DNA from: a virus
IMG/VR virus record: IMGVR_UViG_3300025147_000004
Strand: one strand, 5' to 3'
DNA: 64,000 bases
Within the stretch, counting starts at the first letter, position 1. Each line of letters opens with the position of its first letter. This document shows, piece after piece, positions 25,118 to 50,625 of the stretch. The translations under genes and the position numbers were made by a program. The notes under the pieces are model-generated. The model was not told the origin of the DNA. It ran no database searches and worked only from the letters and a program-made list of their open reading frames with translations.

Positions 25118-25603
25118 TTAAATTGGAAAATTTAATTTGGCAAATTTTGGGTTGCGTGCAATTGCTGCTGCATCATAAGCCCTTGCGGCATCCTCTTCAA
25201 TGTCAAATCTACCAAGATGCTTCTTTTTACCATCTATCCGTAGATACGCCTGCCATTTTTGTCTTGACTTATCCCAATATACTCCTATATATTTGGATGA
25301 GCAATTCTTTATTTTTCTCTGGTTCATGCAGTTCTCTTGATTACTACAATGATTCATATTTAATCTCTGGTTGTTGCACCCATTACCGTCACGGTGATCT
25401 ATTTGTGGTTTCTCTGGATTATCCCCCATAATGAATCTATGCATTAACTGCATGGTGCGTTTTCCATTAATTATAATGTTTCTTGTTGCGTAGAACCTAT
25501 CCTCAGTCTTAAATGCACACCACTTGCCCGCATTTATCACTCTATCATAGTCATCGTCATCAACTAATGCTACTTGCCCTCGTGTTAATTTGATCTCTCT
25601 CAT
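25118..25603 (-). CDS. HNH-AP2 homing endonuclease, copy A
   Basis: The HNH region is IDHRDGNGCNNQRLNM...NQEN. The AP2 domain is SSKYIGVYWDKSRQKWQAYLRIDGKKKHLGRFDIEEDAARAYD. The start was set to MREIKL because the -7 box lies inside the longer ORF. Confidence 0.8.
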   Translation of the reverse strand: MREIKLTRGQVALVDDDDYDRVINAGKWCAFKTEDRFYATRNIIINGKRTMQLMHRFIMGDNPEKPQIDHRDGNGCNNQRLNMNHCSNQENCMNQRKIKNCSSKYIGVYWDKSRQKWQAYLRIDGKKKHLGRFDIEEDAARAYDAAAIARNPKFAKLNFPI

Positions 25604-25607
25604 AATA

Positions 25608-25615
25608 CAAAGATA
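25608..25615 (-). promoter_or_regulatory. -7 box TATCTTTG 4 nt upstream of the ATG at 25603
   Basis: The plus strand reads caaagata at 25608-25615. Confidence 0.4.
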
Positions 25616-25657
25616 ATACTTTTGTTCTAATTTCCTACTATCCAATCATTTATTTTT

Positions 25658-25694
25658 AAAAAAGAAGGGTGGAAACACTTGTGCACCACCCTTC
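25658..25694 (-). terminator. intrinsic terminator after the major tail gene
   Basis: A 9-bp stem GAAGGGTGG/CCACCCTTC (25664-25672 / 25686-25694) is followed by a T-run on the minus strand. Confidence 0.65.
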
Positions 25695-25729
25695 GGTATT
25701 GAGAGAAGAAAAGAAAGTCCTTTGCTTGA

Positions 25730-35683: not shown

Positions 35684-36187
35684 TTATGATATATTTGGGA
35701 CGGGATTTATTGGAAAATTTAATCTTGCGAATTTGCCATAATATATAATTGCCGCCTCGTCGTAAGCGCGAGCAGCATCTTCCTCTACTTTAAACCGACC
35801 AAGAAATTTTTTCTTTCCATCAACATATATTGATACCTCCCATTTTTTATCTCTCGCAAACCATGATACCCCTTTGTATTTTGATGAGGAATTTTTATCC
35901 TTCTTTCTGTTCATGCCATTCTCGGATGTGGTGCAATGTCTCATGTTTAGTCGCTGATTATTCCATCCGTCTCCGTCCTCATGATCTATCATTGGTTTTT
36001 CTGGATTATCACCCATAATGAGTCGGTGCATCATCTGCATGGTTTGTTTGCCGTTAATTCTAATGCGTCTTACGGCATAAAATGTATTGCCGTCTTTCTG
36101 TGCATACCAATTAAATTGGCTAACCATTTCAAAATCTTCGTCATCAACCAAGGCTACTTGACCTTGTGTTAATTTTATTTCTTGCAT
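35684..36187 (-). CDS. HNH-AP2 homing endonuclease, copy B
   Basis: It shows roughly 55-60 percent identity, estimated by eye, to copies A and C. Motifs include IDHEDGDGWNNQRLNM and the AP2 segment SSKYKGVSW...GRFKVEEDAARAYD. The start is at MQEIKL. Confidence 0.8.
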   Translation of the reverse strand: MQEIKLTQGQVALVDDEDFEMVSQFNWYAQKDGNTFYAVRRIRINGKQTMQMMHRLIMGDNPEKPMIDHEDGDGWNNQRLNMRHCTTSENGMNRKKDKNSSSKYKGVSWFARDKKWEVSIYVDGKKKFLGRFKVEEDAARAYDEAAIIYYGKFARLNFPINPVPNIS

Positions 36188-36285
36188 TACTAAATGTTTA
36201 AAACAACAAACCCTCAAACTCAGCTTGCGGACTAAGAATGAAGGTTTGCTAAAAAATATTATCAATTATGCCGCAAGACATGCGA
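36188..36285 (-). promoter_or_regulatory. structured 98-nt leader of HNH-AP2 copy B (interleaved stems plus terminator-like hairpin)
   Basis: S1 pairs 36271-36277 with 36224-36230 (7 bp). S2 pairs 36239-36250 with 36205-36216 (12 bp including 2 G-U), followed by a U-rich tract. Confidence 0.4.
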
Positions 36286-36317
36286 CAAATATACGAAATA
36301 AAATACACACTACCAAA
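36286..36317 (-). promoter_or_regulatory. promoter of HNH-AP2 copy B
   Basis: The -7 box TATATTTG is at 36286-36293 and the -33 box TTTG at 36314-36317 (20-nt spacer). A block of about 36 nt is 31/36 identical to 43781-43816. Confidence 0.5.
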
Positions 36318-41402: not shown

Positions 41403-42911
41403 TTATATTGGCGGTAAATCATATTCCAGTTCTCCCTGCTTCGGCACACTCGGCTTTACCAGCGTTTTCCCCATGCACTTGTAAGCCACAACCCTGCTAA
41501 ACTCTTCCTTACTCATCGTTAGCAATCCTTGAGAAGCCAACCGATCCCATTCGCCAATCATAGGCATTAGGTAGTAGGTGTAAGTCATTCCGTCCGACTT
41601 CCGCTCCTTGATAAAGTTCTTCTCCTTCAGCTTTTCGGCAAACTTCACATTCGAGAAGGCATTGTAGCCGGATGCCTTACAATAATCTACGTACTGTTTG
41701 TACAGATCCTTGGCGGTTATTTGCATCGGGGCGTGGGTCTTGTAGACTGGGATGTTGTAGTATTCCTGATCCTCTATGAATTTCAATATCGAGTTGCTAT
41801 TCATCTCATACTCAATTACTTTGTCCTTAACTGCCTCTGGTTCAACTATCTTGTATCCGTTTGCTTTTATGCGAGCATATCCAGTTAAAAACCAATTAAG
41901 GATACCGCTTAATTCTTCCCGTAATTCGGTATGAAGATTGATGTTTTGCCTTTCCTCTGAGATGGTTACATTAAATGGTACAATTAAAAAACGCCTGAAG
42001 TAGCCTTTGGTGTAGTCGCTGGTAGCTGGTAATTCATTAGTATTTGCGATCAATAATGGAATATGTTTTACAAGAAACGGATCTCGGTAAATATGCCTTG
42101 CTTGGATTGGTTCGCCGGAGATTAGCTTCTTTACGATAGAGCCTGAAATTTCCTTGCTTTTTAATTCCGAGCAGTAGTTTATTGTTTTACCTTCGATTGC
42201 CGCGATGTTGTAGTCCTTGGAATTACCGGAAACTAAATCGCCAATTTCGTAAGTTGTTGTATTATCGTCGCCAACCATCTGAGTCACAGTCTCAAATACA
42301 ACTGACTTTCCATTACTACCTCCTCCGATCAACACGAGCATTCGCTCCAATTTCGATTTACTCCGATCTGCATATGCCAGCGAAATCATCTCCTGAAAAG
42401 CATTTCTTATCAACTCATCCGGCAAAACCTCCTCGATAAACTTCATCCATTTAGGACACTTCGCTTCTGGATCATAATCGTAATTAATTCTGTTGATCAC
42501 GAAATGCTCTGGTGAAAATGGGCTGACCTGCATTGTGTCAGCGTCAAGTACGCAGTTGGTAAAACATAATTTTCTTCTCGTTAGTTTAAAATCCCTCCGG
42601 CTAAGGTTTCTCCAAATCGTTTTCGTCATGCTTTGGAACTCCTTGTTTAGTATTCCATCAGAAACTTGCAGGTATCTCATAGATGTAAATATCGCACTTT
42701 CCAGATCATCCTTATCGACAAGAATGTAGCTGCGGCCATCAAACCACACGCTGTTTCCGGCATACTTGTAGATATTTATCTTAGATAGCGTATCATAATA
42801 TAACAATGCTATACCGCCAACCTTCTCAACCTTAGCTTCCCTACAAAGTATGTCTTTTAACCGTTCCCTGTCGATAGATGTTATTAGCTGTTCACTAAGT
42901 CCATCTGTCAT
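41403..42911 (-). CDS. D5/P4-family primase-helicase (SF3 NTPase)
   Basis: Walker A is LIGGGSNGKSV. LLIANTNELP and GYFRRFLIVPFN are typical of phage/plasmid primase P4-family C-terminal domains. Confidence 0.75.
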   Translation of the reverse strand: MTDGLSEQLITSIDRERLKDILCREAKVEKVGGIALLYYDTLSKINIYKYAGNSVWFDGRSYILVDKDDLESAIFTSMRYLQVSDGILNKEFQSMTKTIWRNLSRRDFKLTRRKLCFTNCVLDADTMQVSPFSPEHFVINRINYDYDPEAKCPKWMKFIEEVLPDELIRNAFQEMISLAYADRSKSKLERMLVLIGGGSNGKSVVFETVTQMVGDDNTTTYEIGDLVSGNSKDYNIAAIEGKTINYCSELKSKEISGSIVKKLISGEPIQARHIYRDPFLVKHIPLLIANTNELPATSDYTKGYFRRFLIVPFNVTISEERQNINLHTELREELSGILNWFLTGYARIKANGYKIVEPEAVKDKVIEYEMNSNSILKFIEDQEYYNIPVYKTHAPMQITAKDLYKQYVDYCKASGYNAFSNVKFAEKLKEKNFIKERKSDGMTYTYYLMPMIGEWDRLASQGLLTMSKEEFSRVVAYKCMGKTLVKPSVPKQGELEYDLPPI

Positions 42912-42920
42912 TGTGTGGGG

Positions 42921-43124
42921 TTAAATTGGACGGAAGAAACTAAGTCCCATAAAAGTCATATGGGCTGCCTTATTGGCACGTACATGAGCATACGGCGATC
43001 CAAGGGACTGAGAGCTAAGCCCCATCATTTTCCCGTAACCTATTCTTGTCCAGAATATTACGCCATCACAAATGATAGTGTCTTCTGAAGTTTGGCGTAT
43101 TGTTTTAAATTCCTGTTGTTCCAT
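42921..43124 (-). CDS. hypothetical protein
   Basis: The start was set to MEQQEF because the annotated start lies inside the -7 box. Confidence 0.4.
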   Translation of the reverse strand: MEQQEFKTIRQTSEDTIICDGVIFWTRIGYGKMMGLSSQSLGSPYAHVRANKAAHMTFMGLSFFRPI

Positions 43125-43145
43125 CGTTTTTAGTTTTGTGTTGTA

Positions 43146-43166
43146 CAAAGATAATGCATTTATTTG
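43146..43166 (-). promoter_or_regulatory. conserved-family promoter (AATAAATGCATTATCTTTG)
   Basis: The -7 box is at 43146-43153, 21 nt before the ATG at 43124. Confidence 0.5.
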
Positions 43167-43184
43167 AATTTCCTAATTTTATTT

Positions 43185-43673
43185 TTATTTATTCTCTGAG
43201 AAATTTAACCATGCAAATTCACCAAAATATTTTATCGCTGCCACGTCATAAGCGCGAGCTGCATCTTCTTCAATAATGAAGTATCCTAAAAACCCCATTT
43301 TGCCGTTTACCCTTATTTGCGCCAACCATTTTTGTCTTGACTCAATCCAACATACTCCTTTGTATTTAGAAGAAGAATTTTTACGAGATTTTTGATTCAT
43401 TTGATTTTGCCTACGCGTACATGGTCTTAAATTTAACCGCCAATTATTGCAACCGTCCCCATCCCAGTGGTCTACACACGGCTTTAGCGGATTATCGCCC
43501 ATTATAAATCTGTGCATATACTGAAGAATACGTTTGCCGTCAATGGTAACGGCTCTTTCTGCATAGAATATATTTCCAATTTTGTGTGCGCACCATTTGT
43601 GTTGATTTACCCTCTCGAAATCTTCATCATCCACATACGCCACTTTTCCTTGTGTTAATTGTATTTCCCGCAT
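43185..43673 (-). CDS. HNH-AP2 homing endonuclease, copy C
   Basis: The HNH region is VDHWDGDGCNNWRLNL. The AP2 domain is SSKYKGVCWIESRQKWLAQIRVNGKMGFLGYFIIEEDAARAYD. Confidence 0.8.
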   Translation of the reverse strand: MREIQLTQGKVAYVDDEDFERVNQHKWCAHKIGNIFYAERAVTIDGKRILQYMHRFIMGDNPLKPCVDHWDGDGCNNWRLNLRPCTRRQNQMNQKSRKNSSSKYKGVCWIESRQKWLAQIRVNGKMGFLGYFIIEEDAARAYDVAAIKYFGEFAWLNFSENK

Positions 43674-43780
43674 TATTGATTATTTAAAATGCAAAACCCA
43701 AAAACACACGGCTAGATGTATCTCTGGGTTTCATCAGATTTTAGTCTGAATTTCTTAACTTCGATCTAGCCATCGAGCTG
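43674..43780 (-). promoter_or_regulatory. structured 107-nt leader of HNH-AP2 copy C
   Basis: S1 pairs 43764-43771 with 43710-43717 (8 bp). S2 pairs 43725-43731 with 43694-43700 (7 bp, extendable with G-U pairs), followed by a U-rich tract. Confidence 0.4.
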
Positions 43781-43812
43781 CAAATATACGGAATATAATC
43801 GACACTACCAAA
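43781..43812 (-). promoter_or_regulatory. promoter of HNH-AP2 copy C
   Basis: The -7 box TATATTTG is at 43781-43788 and the -33 box TTTG at 43809-43812. The block is near-identical to the copy B promoter. Confidence 0.5.
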
Positions 43813-43813
43813 T

Positions 43814-44110
43814 CTACTTTTCTCCCCTCAGCATGTGAAATAATATTCCATAGTTCACTAAGTCAATTATCGAATCATCAATACTCTCATTATTCGGCGT
43901 CTTGCTTCCCTGAAGATTCCCGATCCTGACTACTTTGGTCGCTATGAAAACCAGAAGAACTTGCTCTGGAGTAACGCCTACCATAGAGGCGACTATTTTG
44001 AAGTTGCTGAGGCGGTCGGCATTGGCGTAATCATCCCCCTTGCTGTTCTGTATTTTGGCAATCTCTTCAAATATAGAGGAGAGTTGCGTTTGCTGTTCCT
44101 GTTTAGTCAT
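43814..44110 (-). CDS. DUF1599-like (MazG-related, nucleotide-modification-associated) protein
   Basis: The layout KGDDYANADRLSNF...KVVRIGNL...IDLVNYGILFHML resembles DUF1599 as I recall it. Confidence 0.4.
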   Translation of the reverse strand: MTKQEQQTQLSSIFEEIAKIQNSKGDDYANADRLSNFKIVASMVGVTPEQVLLVFIATKVVRIGNLQGSKTPNNESIDDSIIDLVNYGILFHMLRGEK

Positions 44111-46743: not shown

Positions 46744-46958
46744 TTCTCTATCTCCTTATATTCGTTACAATATCTAAAATATCCCATATCCTTCCAGCCA
46801 TTTCTCCAGTCTGTCGGGATTCGGAACATCACTCTCTTTCCGAGTTGGCATTTGGCTCTTACTTTTATGAAGCCCCTTTCTGATAAAATTGGCTCAATAA
46901 AGTTCTGGCACAGATCGCATTCTTGGCGGGGTGGTTTCTTGGCAGCAGTAGTCGTCAT
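46740..46958 (-). CDS. hypothetical Cys-containing mini-protein
   Basis: 72-aa ORF. Confidence 0.4.
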   Translation of the reverse strand: MTTTAAKKPPRQECDLCQNFIEPILSERGFIKVRAKCQLGKRVMFRIPTDWRNGWKDMGYFRYCNEYKEIEK

Positions 46959-47410
46959 CTCACTTTCTTTATTATTTTAGTTATTTTTATCATTTCCATT
47001 TTATCCCCACCCTTCAGTACCGCTTCGGCTCGCGTGATTCGGTCGCGGAGTTTGCCTGACGCCACAGTCTGCTCACCTTCGACTTCTTCATATGCTATAA
47101 TTTCCCAGATTCTTCTTATTTGTACCATTAGGGCTTGGCTCACTTTCGCAATTGGCATCCCCTCTTCTGTCTCTCCTCTCTTAGTTGTCAGATTCGACCT
47201 ACGGCAATCAAGTTTATCTCCGTTTTTGCAAAATATTCGCACTTTCGGATCTTTCTTACACAGGACGTATTGGGGCAGAGTCCACCTGTGCCCGTCGATC
47301 AGCGCATTTGGGAATTTATCCATTCCCCATTTGTGCTGCGATGCTCGGAAATAGTCGCGGTCGTCAAGGATGGCGCAGGTTCCGTTGTTTAATTCGAGGA
47401 GCTGGCTCAT
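46955..47410 (-). CDS. HNH-endonuclease-like protein with degenerate active site, no AP2 domain
   Basis: LELNNGTCAILDDRDYFRASQHKW aligns with the N-termini of copies A-C. IFCKNGDKLDCRRSNL aligns with IDHRDGNGCNNQRLNM, but the His is replaced. The start is at MSQLLEL. Confidence 0.4.
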   Translation of the reverse strand: MSQLLELNNGTCAILDDRDYFRASQHKWGMDKFPNALIDGHRWTLPQYVLCKKDPKVRIFCKNGDKLDCRRSNLTTKRGETEEGMPIAKVSQALMVQIRRIWEIIAYEEVEGEQTVASGKLRDRITRAEAVLKGGDKMEMIKITKIIKKVR

Positions 47411-47411
47411 A

Positions 47412-48116
47412 TTAGTATCGTATATTTTTATCAAGACCCAATTTATCAAACATGGCAAGCGTTTCTGGCATACCTGCACCCACGCCTTTACCAAAAAAGA
47501 ATAAATCTTCCATTATTGACCAGTTTGCCATTCCTGTGCGATATTTCATGTCGTTTTTACTGCACCAAGCAATCATAGCACTCCTGATCAAAGACGTCGA
47601 AATAACTATGTCATGGTCTTCATAAACCCTATCCGCCGCAGTAGGCTCTATTTCGTAGTTTTCTGCCGGAAAATTGGTTTTTGCGTCCCTGCCTTTAAAT
47701 TTCAGAGCCATTCTATCATACTCTTTAGCGGCTCCAATCTCGGAATCCCAATAACTAAGATTTCTTTTCCCATTTATCCCAATACATGATGTCCATTTAC
47801 CATCCGTTCCAAATTTCGACACACCTCTATATTGGCTCGATTTTGCTTTTATTTTTTTTTCATCATCCACCACAACCTCTACTTTGCTTATGCGCTTCTT
47901 TGGGGCTTTTTTGCTATCCTGCTTCACTGGTTCAGGTACGATATCCTCTTTCGGCACATGTGCCACCATTTCTACGGATAATGCATGCTTGTCAGCCTCC
48001 GCGATTCTATCCTGCATAGACATTCCGGCTCCTTTCGCCATCTTTGCCTCCTGTTCTGCTATTTGCCTCTGCCTTTTCTCTGCCATCCAGTCCGAAATCT
48101 TACTATTGTCGTCCAT
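47412..48116 (-). CDS. AP2-domain DNA-binding protein (no HNH domain)
   Basis: SSQYRGVSKFGTDGKWTSCIGINGKRNLSYWDSEIGAAKEYDRMALKFKG is an AP2 domain. The start was set to MDDNSK, downstream of the leader. Confidence 0.6.
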   Translation of the reverse strand: MDDNSKISDWMAEKRQRQIAEQEAKMAKGAGMSMQDRIAEADKHALSVEMVAHVPKEDIVPEPVKQDSKKAPKKRISKVEVVVDDEKKIKAKSSQYRGVSKFGTDGKWTSCIGINGKRNLSYWDSEIGAAKEYDRMALKFKGRDAKTNFPAENYEIEPTAADRVYEDHDIVISTSLIRSAMIAWCSKNDMKYRTGMANWSIMEDLFFFGKGVGAGMPETLAMFDKLGLDKNIRY

Positions 48117-48222
48117 TGTAATATTTTTAAAATAGAAAAACCTCCAAGGGAGCAAGTAGAGAATTGCCACACCTCAAAGGTTTCTGTAAAATAAGTTTCG
48201 TGGGTCTCTACTCCCGAAAGCA
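48117..48222 (-). promoter_or_regulatory. structured 106-nt leader of the AP2-only gene
   Basis: S1 pairs 48206-48215 with 48148-48161 (5+5 bp with a 4-nt bulge). S2 pairs 48178-48183 with 48138-48143 (AAACCT/AGGTTT, extendable), followed by TTTTCTATTTT. Confidence 0.4.
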
Positions 48223-48230
48223 CAAAGATA
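48223..48230 (-). promoter_or_regulatory. -7 box TATCTTTG of the leftward early operon
   Basis: The plus strand reads caaagata at 48223-48230. Confidence 0.45.
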
Positions 48231-48839
48231 ACATTAATTTTCGAATAAACAATAGTAAATCACAAATAAATAAAACAATCTACATAAATCTACATATTTA
48301 AGTTTTACTATAAATATTGTTATCATACGCTAATATGTAGAAAAACTACATATTTTAACTTTATGTATTGCATATTTTTGCAAGAAAAACTACATTTTAT
48401 GTATCTTGTGCATAAAAATTACTCTGCGATCAAAATTTTCATCTATACATTAAAAAATCACATGGAAGGCAAAAGGTGTTTATTGCGTTGTTGGGTTGAA
48501 TTTTAAGTACTATTCTTAATATTATGTTTATGTCGTTCAATGAATGTAGTGAAGGCACTTTTATAAAGTGTTTCAGTATTATGTATGTTCAACTTACATA
48601 TATGTAGTATATGTATTATACACATACATATTATATATAGGTTACATATATATCCCTTACAGTAACATCAGTTACATTATTTAACTCTAATATATTGATT
48701 GTCAGCAAAAAAAATGCAATGTAGTTATATATTTCACATACTTCGATCCTTCATCAGCTTCATTAAGCCCGATCCAAGGCATAATCCACAAATCACGAAC
48801 ACCAGAATTGAGTAGGGTTAGTAATATTGGTACAACCCT

Positions 48840-48876
48840 ACCAGTACCGACCAGTAGCCACCAGTACCTACCAGTT
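48840..48876 (+). repeat. four ACCAGTA-type iterons with exact 10-bp phasing
   Basis: The copies read ACCAGTACCG, ACCAGTAGCC, ACCAGTACCT and ACCAGTTGAA. A related ACCAGAA lies at 48801. Confidence 0.8.
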
Positions 48877-49125
48877 GAAAATCAGAAAAATAAAAAAATT
48901 CAGAAAATTTCAAAATAATAAAAAATGTCTCGGAATCGGAAGGCGCGCGTCCTCAAAATTTTTAAAGGGGGGTGTACCCAGTGGCCTGTGTCCCGTCACA
49001 TACCTACATAATATTACATTTATTAGTTGTTATTAGCACATATACGTGTTATATGTATAGCTTAAACCATTTGATTGATAATCAGATAGCTGTAAATTTT
49101 AAGTGAGTATAATGTATTATGTATG

Positions 49126-49602
49126 TTAAAATTTCAGCTTAAACTCACACGTTTCGCATCTCTGGGGGAGATAATAACGTATCGTTTCGTTATCCTGTTT
49201 AGGCTGTTCTTTATTGAATCCTTGTAGCGTTGAAAGTTTAATAAGTAGGTCACTTTTGAGCTTAACATCTGTACTTGTACGTATAATTGCGGTGAGTTGG
49301 TCTATTATGGCCGATTTACTTAAAATCTCATTCTCATTATGTTCAATATTTTGATTTTCTGAATCAATTACAATCCTCTTGTTTTTTATTAAATAAGCTT
49401 TTACTGACTTGTTGTTAATCCAATTAGTAGCCCTTTGTTGTAGTAAGCTTTGATCAATATCCTTTGTTATTCCCTTACATGCTTTATATGCTTCGATTCT
49501 GTTTGCACTGTTAAATAGATATGCATCTAAGCAAATTAGCTCTAAACTTGAAAGGTTTAAAATTAAATTATCTTGCTCCTGTAACTCTTCGCCTGTTTGC
49601 AT
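49126..49602 (-). CDS. HTH protein resembling a small terminase subunit (Terminase_2-like)
   Basis: LSSLELICLDAYLFNSANRIEAYKACKGI...ATNWINNKSVKAYL follows the L..Q..F...Y.....N...A...AGY pattern only loosely. The start is at MQTGEEL, 21 nt after a -7 box. Confidence 0.3.
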   Translation of the reverse strand: MQTGEELQEQDNLILNLSSLELICLDAYLFNSANRIEAYKACKGITKDIDQSLLQQRATNWINNKSVKAYLIKNKRIVIDSENQNIEHNENEILSKSAIIDQLTAIIRTSTDVKLKSDLLIKLSTLQGFNKEQPKQDNETIRYYLPQRCETCEFKLKF

Positions 49603-49623
49603 ATCGTTAATTGTAAAGAAAGG

Positions 49624-49631
49624 CAAAGATA
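49624..49631 (-). promoter_or_regulatory. -7 box TATCTTTG
   Basis: The plus strand reads caaagata, 21 nt upstream of the ATG at 49602. Confidence 0.45.
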
Positions 49632-50013
49632 AGAAAAGAAACGGGAAAAGCAATACTAACCTAACTAAACCAAAAACCTTCTTCGCGACGTGAGTCGCAT
49701 TGCATGTAATTACTCAGGCATTCGTGAATTGATTATATATACAGTAATACACATATGTATATATCTATATAAGCGTGCATATGTGTGATTGTATTAACTA
49801 CACTAAATCAATGTAGATTAATTATGTAAGTACCTGATTATCAGCGACTAAAACGATCTCCGCCGAAATGTACTAACTATCTACTCACCGGAAGAGTGTC
49901 TATAATAGGCTTATATGGGCATTAATGGGTATATGTGTAATGTACTGATGTATAAGTAATTAATAGTAATGATATAAGTGATTAAAGTAAACATAAGTGA
50001 AAAGTTCTTATTT

Positions 50014-50070
50014 CTTTTAACATTCTTTAACTAAATTAATTAGGTACGTTATAGGCATTTATTATCTTTG
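50014..50070 (+). promoter_or_regulatory. rightward early promoter, copy 1 of a paralogous pair
   Basis: The 28-nt block CTTTTAACATTCTTTAACTAAATTAATT is followed by TATCTTTG at 50063-50070. Confidence 0.5.
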
Positions 50071-50105
50071 TGTATCCTAAAGTATGGGATTTAAAACAAA
50101 TAAAG

Positions 50106-50297
50106 ATGAGAGCAACTTACAAAACAGTCGGAGAAGTAGTAATAAGCATGAAGGATATTAGGAACATGTATAAATTAACCGCGTTAATTGACGGCATTTA
50201 CAAGGTTAGGTTAATTGCAATGACTCCCAATAGTCTCGAATTGTTACCTGCTGAAGTATCCGCACACTTTGAAAAGTTAAATATATCCTTAAATTAA
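50106..50297 (+). CDS. hypothetical early protein
   Basis: The start was moved to MRATYK, downstream of the -7 box. 63 aa. Confidence 0.4.
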   Translation: MRATYKTVGEVVISMKDIRNMYKLTALIDGIYKVRLIAMTPNSLELLPAEVSAHFEKLNISLN

Positions 50298-50412
50298 ATT
50301 GCAGTGAAAAAACTAATTCACATATTGACTCCCAAAAAATTGACCTTCGCAGAAAAAAGGGAAAAGGTAAGGGAAAAGAAAGTAAAGAATTACACGTTTT
50401 AATAAAAAAGTT

Positions 50413-50625
50413 ATGCAAAAGTTGGAAATAAAAGGCGTAAAGGTAGGCCAAAGGTTTATGTATGATAATCACAATATGGCTGAGGTGGTTGATTTTTACG
50501 AACAGAAAAGTATGGTAACGGGTGAAATTATTGGTTACATATGTATAGCTAAAGGCGTAAATACTTTATCTACAAATTTATTTGAAACATCATTTTCGAG
50601 AGTAATAAGATTTAAGAGAAGCTAA
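50413..50625 (+). CDS. hypothetical early protein
   Basis: 70-aa ORF. Confidence 0.45.
   Translation: MQKLEIKGVKVGQRFMYDNHNMAEVVDFYEQKSMVTGEIIGYICIAKGVNTLSTNLFETSFSRVIRFKRS

Follow-up and report, generated by a model that had tools for sequence, protein, structure and literature searches.

A putative attenuator leader with complementary loops ahead of homing-endonuclease and other early genes of Bacteroidota phages

The kissing complexes of ColE1 RNA I and RNA II join fully complementary loops of about 7 nucleotides (nt), and the Rom protein recognises the complex whatever the loop sequence. The leaders of plasmids pT181 and pIP501 are subject to attenuation by antisense RNA, the pairing being coupled to a leader terminator in pT181-type plasmids. 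The pRNA of phage phi29 is transcribed from an early promoter and has two loops complementary to each other, which covary among related phages; their 4-nt pairing between molecules builds the ring on the packaging motor. In phage lambda, the promoter pR' is followed within about 100–200 nt by the terminator tR' (6S RNA), and expression needs antitermination, with Q; the nut sites of lambda and the put sites of HK022 are hairpins found shortly downstream of early promoters. In corrinoid riboswitches, the L5-L13 loop-loop pairing stabilises the hairpin which decides whether a terminator forms (PMC10653944). In phage P4, the leader-encoded CI RNA pairs with seqA and seqC of the same leader and brings about premature termination, while in Gifsy-1 the short terminated leader RNA IsrK acts on its own read-through isoform (PMC4825925). 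In the PeSL cassettes of T4-like phages an early promoter and a terminator-like stem-loop precede many accessory genes, and the cassettes are apparently mobile (PMC4122927). Here we describe a leader in a 64,000-nt stretch of viral DNA, IMG/VR record IMGVR_UViG_3300025147_000004 (this whole stretch is called the window), where it stands before the HNH-AP2 gene C (locus C, 43674–43812) and, in two further copies, before the HNH-AP2 gene B and gene D, which has an AP2-like domain only. Its parts are a promoter, a small 5'-terminal hairpin (P1, loop L1), a tether, often a middle hairpin (P2), and a terminator-like hairpin (P3, apical loop L3) with a U tract; L1 and L3 are complementary, and the two strands of this pairing (S1) are called S1-5' and S1-3'.

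In kind, this module belongs with leader attenuators and kissing-loop RNAs. As in lambda and HK022, a terminator lies between a phage promoter and the genes which it serves; we know of no pairing of the 5' end with the terminator loop in lambda pR'-tR', nut or HK022 put, and no homologue of Q, N or put was identified for the module. With ColE1 and pT181 it shares complementary loops of about 7 nt and a presumed coupling to a terminator, and recognition of the Rom type would suit its variable S1 words. In those plasmids, however, the loops are on separate, oppositely transcribed RNAs, whereas both loops of the module are on one sense transcript; no Rom-like protein was identified for it. The phi29 pRNA is present in a single copy per genome and the module in several, each before a gene and each with a terminator; scans with the Rfam library, which should include the pRNA family, gave no match. 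Like the corrinoid riboswitches, the module is a 5' leader in which an upstream hairpin and a downstream regulatory hairpin pair through their loops (PMC10653944). Unlike them it has no large conserved aptamer and no known ligand, and the kissing hairpin is itself the terminator. The corrinoid kiss comprises three defined base pairs (bp), or four in hyper-stable mutants (PMC10653944), against 7–12 freely varying bp in the module, and the Rfam cobalamin models matched neither the window nor leader C and 18 relatives. The likeness to P4 and IsrK is that of a phage early-promoter leader with self-complementary segments and with a short terminated RNA and a read-through mRNA from one promoter (PMC4825925), both RNAs being predicted for the module. 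The P4 CI RNA is processed, acts in trans and has two target sites, whereas the module has a single intramolecular loop-loop pair, is not known to be processed, and belongs to Bacteroidota rather than enterobacteria. Leader C and 18 relatives showed no homology to P4 CI RNA, C4 or IsrK through any Rfam family at permissive thresholds, and this resemblance is functional only. In the PeSLs the stem-loop is upstream of the promoter, whereas the module has its terminator downstream of the promoter, as part of the transcript, with a loop complementary to the 5' end. What seems new is the capture of a terminator's apical loop by a hairpin at the 5' end of its own transcript, the whole forming, with the promoter, a portable cassette. 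Rfam 15 gave no relevant match for the window at the gathering threshold or for leader C and 18 relatives at a permissive E≤5–10, and no description of the element was found in the literature on HNH, kissing loops, terminators, phage, structured-RNA catalogues and LoVEphage/BI-TP1 transcriptomics; the view of an earlier, sequence-only reading of the stretch, that such an element was undescribed, holds for the sources searched.

That reading had proposed two interleaved stems, S1 and S2, in each of the three leaders. All of the stems which it quoted were found on the minus strand behind TAnnTTTG promoters (Table 1). It had also taken S2 for an intrinsic terminator; there is indeed a GC-based hairpin followed by a U tract, but S2 is only the base of the long hairpin P3, with its 17 pairs (C), 13+6 pairs (B) or about 19 pairs (D), and not a short stem with a long open loop. 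In the minimum-free-energy folds S1-3' was the apical loop of P3. When the leaders were folded with S1 masked, S1-5' lay within, or overlapped, the loop of P1, which itself begins a few bases after the predicted transcription start. In leaders B, C and D the S1 complementarity would thus join the 5' end of the transcript to the loop of a terminator-like hairpin. From the folding models, the element is best described as a kissing (loop-loop) contact or, in leaders that lack P1, as an H-type pseudoknot.

The comparison with shuffled controls came out in favour of a structured RNA. Against 200 dinucleotide shuffles the minimum free energies (MFE) of leaders C (z=-5.0) and B (z=-5.2) were far better, with none of the 200 as good in either case, and that of D (z=-1.9) was equalled in 5/200. 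To assess the S1 complementarity without the contribution of the terminator hairpin, the 70 nt before the terminator were shuffled, which gave p=0.03 for C and 0.013 for both B and D; among homologous loci with a terminator-like hairpin immediately before the start codon, 16 of 31 had p≤0.06. A covariance model (R1, MAFFT-seeded, P1+P2+P3) was built from six seed leaders. Since sequence and spacing vary too much within the family for such a model, a pairing descriptor with shuffle controls was used instead; the leaders were accordingly detected by descriptor and not by a calibrated model, and compensatory variation was judged from the diversity of S1 words together with the shuffle controls. 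One weak R1 match (L022:1989-2074; L-numbers label the relative loci retrieved in this analysis, and their coordinates are within-locus) was rejected as an ordinary terminator followed by a promoter, the PeSL-like order. In its loose form the descriptor was non-specific genome-wide (87 matches against about 60 in shuffles), with B, C and D standing out among the few matches that had a P3 stem of at least 11 bp and an S1 of at least 7 bp. Anchored to promoters, it gave 48 matches in 1.38 Mb, against 6–8 after the 30 nt past each promoter had been shuffled. A P1 stem of at least 4 bp was present in 60% of 30 unique leaders and in 22% with shuffled flanks. In 16 of 23 leaders the sense strand gave the better fold of the two strands, by a wide margin for B and C (MFE in kcal/mol, sense vs antisense: C -32.6 vs -20.1; B -35.6 vs -15.2; D -26.3 vs -20.8), and P3 of C holds several G-U pairs; both observations place the function on the sense transcript.

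Scanning IMG/VR for HNH-AP2 relatives yielded 80 loci, and at about 21 of these the same design stands directly upstream of the gene, with unrelated S1 words of 6–12 bp (commonest length 7 bp); the paired arrangement is thus kept in these homologues, as the sequence-only reading would have it. Many of them have a TAnnTTTG box 94–123 nt before the ATG. Others have good sigma-70 promoters (TTGACA-N16/17-TATACT or TAGAAT in L013, L038 and L065; a TATAAT -10 box in L068), and these sigma-70-type leaders are architecturally similar to the Bacteroidota-type ones. The 30 unique leaders contain 24 different S1 words, with 3–4 different bases at each of the seven S1 positions. Examples are TGTACCAGA, CTCTCAC, GGTCAAG, GGTTTGGC, ATCCGGCAAG, TGTCAGAGCTAA and TGGGACTGGCA, the terminator-loop partner being exactly complementary in each. 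Such strong compensatory variation, as far as sequences can tell, bears out the structural covariation that had been suspected among the window paralogues.

The remaining architecture is also regular. P3 and a U tract are present in B, C, D and all 30 unique relatives (median local dG -19 kcal/mol), and P3 is consistently two-tiered, having a GC-rich lower stem of 8–12 bp, an upper stem of 4–7 bp and a loop of 6–10 nt; in most members the GC-rich base is directly followed by 4–9 U. S1-5' starts 4–19 nt past the -7 box, the distance from this box to the end of P3 is 77–103 nt in the 30 unique leaders, and the U tract ends 7–24 nt ahead of the start codon. The tether between P1 and P2 is single-stranded and A/U-rich or purine-rich, with the consensus AAAGAUAUU, and is moderately conserved in the Bacteroidota clade. 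Its motif recurs in HNH-anchored relatives that were not chosen for it, and tether conservation is judged from this set only, because the pattern scan described below forces the motif. P2 is found in many members and is absent in B, L086, L104 and L126. A 2x2 internal loop, mostly of U opposite U, separates the lower and upper stems of P3 in window B, L004, L005, L053, L086, L111 and L116, and may be a hinge or a recognition site.

The S1 words show how the parts have been combined. The same word occurs with different P1, P2 and P3 (CCATCAC in L109 and L202; GTGGTAG in L116 and L193), and the complementary word CTACCAC is found in L111, so that there the contact strands have swapped sides relative to GTGGTAG. 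Near-identical leaders precede different genes in L086 and L135. Within one genome the words always differ (three leaders in the window, three in Bacteroides phage BI-TP1, two each in L013 and L044). At the last two loci tandem HNH-AP2 genes have a promoter and leader each, with different S1 words (L013:1398-1481 and 2384-2472; L044:~700-817 and ~2189-2280), one pair with sigma-70-type promoters and the other with Bacteroidota-type promoters. The near-identical leaders before different genes and the recurrence of S1 words across cassettes would fit a feature acting at the level of DNA and having no RNA function, either a recombination or shuffling module or hairpins in single-stranded DNA, and PeSL cassettes have been implicated in modular shuffling in T4-like phages (PMC4122927). 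We nevertheless regard this explanation as extremely improbable. The orientation to promoter and gene is fixed and the U tract is on the sense strand only; G-U pairs and the better folding of the sense strand point to RNA, and compensatory changes keep the pairing and not the sequence. Shuffling may well occur, yet it leaves the complementarity of L1 and L3 unexplained.

The genes behind the module are varied. A strict descriptor applied to both strands of 264 kb of HNH-AP2 loci gave 9 matches at the expected spot and 18 elsewhere, two of the latter being informative, namely the second tandem leader of L013 (2384-2472) and one at a ParB-like gene (L010:478-566). A protein-independent IMG/VR pattern scan on the tether motif, in which 120 stretches were listed and then filtered for S1 pairing, found the module before genes for an N6/N4 DNA methylase, a ParB-like/methylase fusion, a DEAD/SNF2 helicase, a Lin1244_N replication-type protein, DUF6378, DUF6291, a prim-pol-like protein, a 277-amino-acid (aa) protein without known function and several small open reading frames (ORFs). 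In a pattern scan of genome contigs, the chance matches among the 120 listed came from all phyla and none convincingly passed the S1 test, a result which has no bearing on host range.

Among cultured phages, those of the LoVEphage group are closest to the window phage (primase 33% identical). A cultured, temperate member of this group, Bacteroides phage BI-TP1 (PQ571265.1), carries three copies of the module. The first, at ~49,880-49,990 on the plus strand, lies at an early promoter directly divergent from an S24 CI-like repressor gene; its P1 is GTAATA/TATTAC with the loop GTAGCAG, and its 15-bp P3 has the loop CTGCTAC and is followed by U5. The second is ahead of a KilA-N gene, with GGGAAGG pairing with CCTTCCC, and the third, which is weaker, precedes gp65. 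U tracts of these copies are at ~49,990 (+) and ~16,650 (-). The paper describing BI-TP1 reports no transcript data. Directly after the first leader and before the next promoter, about 430 nt are free of ORFs and richer in G+C (L207:1600-2030, or BI-TP1 ~50,000-50,430). No Rfam family matched this stretch at E≤1; either a long non-coding RNA or some unannotated feature of the early transcript may lie here.

The sequence-only reading had also suggested that the leader controls the expression of AP2 and homing-endonuclease genes by attenuation, possibly through autoregulation by the AP2 proteins. The anatomy of an attenuator (promoter, hairpin with U tract, ORF) is there; the exclusive link to AP2/HNH genes, when tested, was absent, the module standing also before methylase, helicase, ParB-like, Lin1244_N, DUF6378, DUF6291 and KilA-N genes. 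Three of the four AP2-domain genes of the window, and no other window gene, carry the leader, and it is frequent among HNH-AP2 relatives. Yet most of these relatives are without it, including paralogue A and the homologues inspected at four loci of cultured phages (Bacillus 268TH002 and Staley, Microcystis MaeS, Burkholderia PE067), where the genes are tightly packed and the leader is absent. The variable, compensating sequence moreover argues against a sequence-specific DNA-binding domain as its reader. As the same module precedes so many unrelated genes, and lies beside the BI-TP1 repressor, AP2-specific autoregulation is not supported, and we give it next to no credence.

A riboswitch, in which P1, P2 and the junctions would form the aptamer for a small molecule made during infection and the ligand would alter the kiss and hence termination, is in our opinion very improbable. 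The position in a 5' leader, the terminator and the long-range tertiary contact recall the L5-L13 logic of the cobalamin riboswitches (PMC10653944), and the AAAGAUAUU tether and the U-rich internal loop are moderately conserved. Beyond the tether, however, there is almost no invariant nucleotide, P2 is dispensable, the downstream genes have no common metabolic theme, and no Rfam riboswitch family matched even at E≤10.

The reading that we favour, with about even confidence, is that the leader is a modular promoter-proximal attenuator cassette of Bacteroidota phages, giving a terminated RNA of ~80–100 nt and some read-through into early genes. The promoter consensus, the hairpins, the U tract, the complementarity of L1 and L3 with its compensatory changes, the constant distance to the ORF and the variety of genes downstream are observed; P3 and the U tract are a putative intrinsic terminator, and transcripts are inferred to start at the TAnnTTTG or sigma-70 promoters. 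In this mechanism a host-type promoter would start the transcript, whose first bases would fold into P1 and show L1 as a loop of 7–10 nt. The single-stranded tether, often with P2, would follow, and then the two-tiered P3 with L3 and the U tract. L3 being Watson-Crick complementary to L1, the loops would kiss and close the RNA into a compact rod. P3 and the U tract would terminate most transcripts, and a fraction would read into the gene some 10–25 nt further on. The kiss would form while the polymerase is still on the U tract and would lock the terminator hairpin or speed its folding; weakening it would then allow more read-through, the candidates for doing so being a phage protein which recognises the kissing complex or the tether, and competing free leader RNA. 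In the window the cassette travels with the homing-endonuclease genes B and C, and it also heads the leftward D operon; with a homing endonuclease, the unit would give low, context-independent expression and block transcription arriving from the upstream operon. The direction of the effect, with the kiss favouring termination, is guessed from the corrinoid riboswitches, in which a kissing loop stabilises the hairpin committed to termination (PMC10653944), and from the P4 CI RNA with seqA/seqC (PMC4825925); it is held with much less confidence than the attenuator as a whole.

Several observations bear on this mechanism. The terminator-like hairpin lies between a consensus promoter, presumably in use, and the ORF, as in an attenuator. 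Of 227 bases of S1-3', 190 are unpaired in the local P3 fold, and the unpaired share is 70% or more in 26 of 30 leaders. Of the pseudoknot or switch proposed earlier, the pseudoknot (or kissing contact) is thus supported and the switch is not: with S1-3' in the apical loop of P3 and an S1 of mostly 7 bp, kiss and terminator can coexist and need not exclude each other. The tether and P2 together have a median length of 24 nt, which suffices to lead back along a coaxial P1-kiss-P3 rod and likewise favours a coexisting contact over a mutually exclusive antiterminator. In the sigma-70-type examples a GGAG-type ribosome site lies past the U tract and is not sequestered, which argues for control of transcription rather than of translation and makes sequestration unlikely. 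With the ORF only 10–25 nt away, and several of these ORFs being essential early genes, read-through matters. Leader D, in particular, heads an operon of about 15 genes, so read-through there must be substantial or regulated, and is worth controlling. The primase operon has its own promoter downstream of gene C, and the essential genes there would be independent of read-through from leader C.

Other points weigh against the attenuator. Start sites, 3' ends at the U tract and levels of read-through are all deduced from sequence. Several U tracts are short or interrupted: B has 4 U behind its stem, and C has UUUUGCAUUUU. No mutually exclusive antiterminator pairing was found, no competing helix being conserved, and the kissing contact may be without effect on termination. 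No candidate for a trans-acting regulator was identified in the window, and PHROG searches on ten neighbouring ORFs returned only unknown functions. In the sigma-70-type leaders S1-3' abuts the 3' arm of P3, S1 is 10–12 bp long and the connector is 11–21 nt (11 nt in L013), an apparently strained geometry which may mean partial mutual exclusion. Finally, a covariance model for searching related genomes, as the sequence-only reading had proposed, failed to generalise: R1 recovered only its seeds with default filters, and with filters off the other true leaders scored just 13–21 bits.

The weak or interrupted U tracts could also mean that P3 is a poor terminator and that the leader is a stability or insulation element of the 5' untranslated region, its fold shielding the mRNA from 5'-end-dependent nucleases and sparing the A/U-rich landing site for ribosomes any influence of the context into which the cassette is inserted. 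The 5' end is paired in P1, an unstructured A/U-rich spacer before the start codon is preserved, and the cassette occurs in many gene contexts. We hold this improbable, since the GC-rich base of P3 with 4–9 U in most members is typical of working intrinsic terminators, and stability alone needs no terminator loop as the partner of the 5' loop.

A further explanation, unlikely in our judgement though to be taken seriously, is that the short terminated RNA of about 90 nt is itself the functional product, acts in trans, and that downstream expression is incidental leak-through. Such an RNA, stable, compact and closed by the kissing contact, might bind or titrate a host or phage protein, or its halves, cleaved at the tether, might pair with nascent leaders of the same address. 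The leader has the shape of a discrete small-RNA gene of 77–103 nt, with the promoter just before P1 and the terminator at the end; the single-stranded AAAGAUAUU tether resembles a seed or cleavage site; near-identical leaders precede different genes (L086, L135), and different S1 words occur within each genome. IsrK and the P4 CI RNA are precedents for leader-derived RNAs acting in trans (PMC4825925). Against it, an ORF is always close behind, several of these ORFs being essential early genes, L1 and L3 are satisfied in cis and leave little free surface, and a protein would find no conserved primary sequence to recognise outside the tether. A long shot is that each cassette is a self-addressed, RNA-only feedback timer, in which the terminated leader RNA, or a processed half of it, would accumulate and pair in trans with the L1 or L3 of nascent transcripts having the same 7-nt address. 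If this were true, the terminator of that promoter alone would be switched, and each phage or incoming homing-endonuclease cassette could bring several orthogonal, protein-free controllers; in temperate phages such as BI-TP1, the repressor-proximal leader would then be an RNA layer of immunity.

Four other identities were considered and rejected. A group I intron or split gene around the HNH genes was discarded as no intron model matched and the flanking genes are intact. The CUGAUGA of leader C, reminiscent of a hammerhead ribozyme, is absent from relatives, had no Rfam match and was taken as chance. Leader-peptide attenuation was set aside because the short ORFs in the leaders of C, B, L001 and L014 are not found in D, L004, L005 and L053 and are unconserved. 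An antisense promoter in the AAAGATATT tether was dismissed, a perfect reverse TAnnTTTG being present in L014 only.

The surroundings of locus C suggest how the module arrived there. In the related contig IMGVR_UViG_3300022561_000008, whose primase is 79% identical, the DUF1599 gene and the primase-operon promoter are kept, and an ORF of 51 codons takes the place of promoter C, leader C and HNH-AP2 gene C. On this comparison promoter, leader and gene C are, to all appearance, one insertion unit. The same relative has an HNH-AP2 cassette elsewhere (L004), with a promoter nearly identical to those of B and C and a different S1 word. A transfer RNA (tRNA) gene (68 bits) was found at L004:1137-1209, about 200 nt upstream of this cassette; a search of the window for tRNA and transfer-messenger RNA found nothing. 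HNH-AP2 relatives repeatedly adjoin, or lie between, helicase and primase genes in unrelated phages (L081 and L082, from Bacillus 268TH002 and Staley; window 41403-43673), which suggests that they share a homing target region within replication modules.

The window has a G+C content of 39.5% and the gene content of a tailed phage (D5/primase protein, DNA-transfer protein, HNH endonucleases). A pattern scan revealed several Bacteroidota-type promoters (TTTG-N19-TAnnTTTG), mostly with short leaders of 20–30 nt. The promoter of locus C begins 2 nt past the stop codon (43814-43816) of the upstream DUF1599 gene. There are four AP2-domain genes, A to D, all on the minus strand. Proteins B and C match Pfam AP2 with E=1e-6 and 1e-7, slightly below the gathering score, and PHROG HNH with E=1e-38 to 1e-40; the HNH+AP2 paralogues A, B and C are 61–63% identical to one another (B and C 63%), and D aligns to the AP2 part alone of B and C with 39–42% identity. 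Paralogue A has the ordinary, PeSL-like order of terminator, promoter, ATG, without a leader.

Table 1. Positions of the promoters, leader parts and AP2-domain genes in the window
Feature	Position	Strand	Details	Basis
Locus C promoter, Bacteroidota type	43781..43812	-	-33 TTTG 43812-43809; -7 TAtaTTTG 43788-43781	pattern scan; use predicted from consensus
Locus C leader	43780-43674	-		
Locus C P1, small 5' hairpin	43759..43777	-	arms 43777-43772 / 43765-43759; loop carries S1-5' GGCTAGAT (43771-43764)	MFE fold and S1-masked fold
Locus C S1		-	GGCTAGAT 43771-43764 pairs with ATCTAGCC 43717-43710; duplex -11.1 kcal/mol	
Locus C linker and P2	43734..43756	-	linker AAGAAAUU 43756-43749 (family consensus AAAGAUAUU); P2, middle hairpin, TCAGA 43749-43745 / TCTGA 43738-43734	
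Locus C P3, terminator-like	43686..43732	-	5' arm 43732-43716; loop CTAGCC 43715-43710; 3' arm 43709-43693; then GCAUUUU	terminator scan; 17-pair fold
Locus C S2		-	AAACCCA 43731-43725 pairs with TGGGTTT 43700-43694; then GCATTTT	
HNH-AP2 gene C	43185..43673	-	162 aa; start codon 43673, 20 nt past P3 base	Pfam, PHROG
Primase-operon promoter	43146..43153	-	TAtcTTTG; separate, shortly downstream of gene C	kept in relative L085
Locus B promoter	36286..36317	-	TTTG..TAtaTTTG; near copy of C promoter	predicted
Locus B leader	36200..36281	-	extent 36285-36188; P2 absent	folds, z=-5.2
Locus B P1		-	weak; ATG 36281-36279 / CAT 36270-36268 around S1-5'	
Locus B S1		-	CTTGCGG 36277-36271 pairs with CCGCAAG 36230-36224	
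Locus B P3		-	lower stem 36251-36239 / 36216-36204; UU/UU internal loop 36238-36237 / 36218-36217; upper stem 36236-36231 / 36224-36219; loop CCGCAA 36230-36225; UUUU 36203-36200	
HNH-AP2 gene B	35684..36187	-	167 aa; start codon 36187	Pfam, PHROG
Locus D -7 box	48223..48230	-	TAtcTTTG; weak -33	predicted
Locus D leader	48129..48219	-	extent 48222-48117	folds, z=-1.9, weakest of three
Locus D P1		-	48219-48213 / 48203-48196; loop AGUAGAGAC	
Locus D S1		-	S1-5' GGGAGTAGAGA 48215-48205 (= GGGAGTAGAG(A)); S1-3' TCTCTACT 48162-48155 and CTCCC 48152-48148	
Locus D P3		-	5' arm 48185-48172; 3' arm 48149-48136; U tract extends to 48129	
Gene D	47412..48116	-	234 aa; AP2-like domain only; opens leftward operon; start codon 48116	
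Paralogue A, HNH+AP2 gene	25118-25603	-		
Upstream region of paralogue A	25604..25729	-	ordinary terminator GGGTGG..CCACCC and T run, then TAtcTTTG 4 nt before ATG	

Directly downstream of D, the ORF at 46955-47410 on the minus strand is similar to the HNH-AP2 proteins in their N-terminal part (38% identity to residues 4-48 of C), whereas D resembles their AP2 part. Taken together, this ORF and D have the look, by sequence similarity, of an HNH-AP2 gene which was rearranged or split and lost its HNH motif. The promoter of locus D closes a largely non-coding, repeat-rich region of ~1.9 kb (48225-50100) between divergent operons. Near 48880-48840 this region has four (G)GTACTGG-type repeats in tandem; ATGTAG words recur at 48395-48280, directly ahead of the D promoter, and AT-rich palindromes of the form ACATATATGT lie near 49790-49730 and 48650-48600. 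The region may serve as an origin, operator or packaging region. A lone ORF of 158 aa inside it (49126-49602, minus strand) has no PHROG match; its N-terminus, judged by eye, is reminiscent of small terminase subunits.

If the leader is an attenuator, it would be a widespread and previously unnoticed way of gating early, replication and selfish-nuclease genes in Bacteroidota phages, including the highly prevalent gut LoVEphage/BI-TP1 group, and its logic, a terminator loop held by the 5' end of its own transcript, would be unusual and simple. In BI-TP1, a temperate gut phage available in culture, it offers a concrete and testable element right where the choice between lysis and lysogeny is controlled. 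Variable loops on a fixed architecture would provide orthogonal expression parts of ~90 nt for Bacteroides, where such tools are few. For the phages themselves, the module would explain how free-standing homing-endonuclease cassettes bring their own insulation into new contexts.

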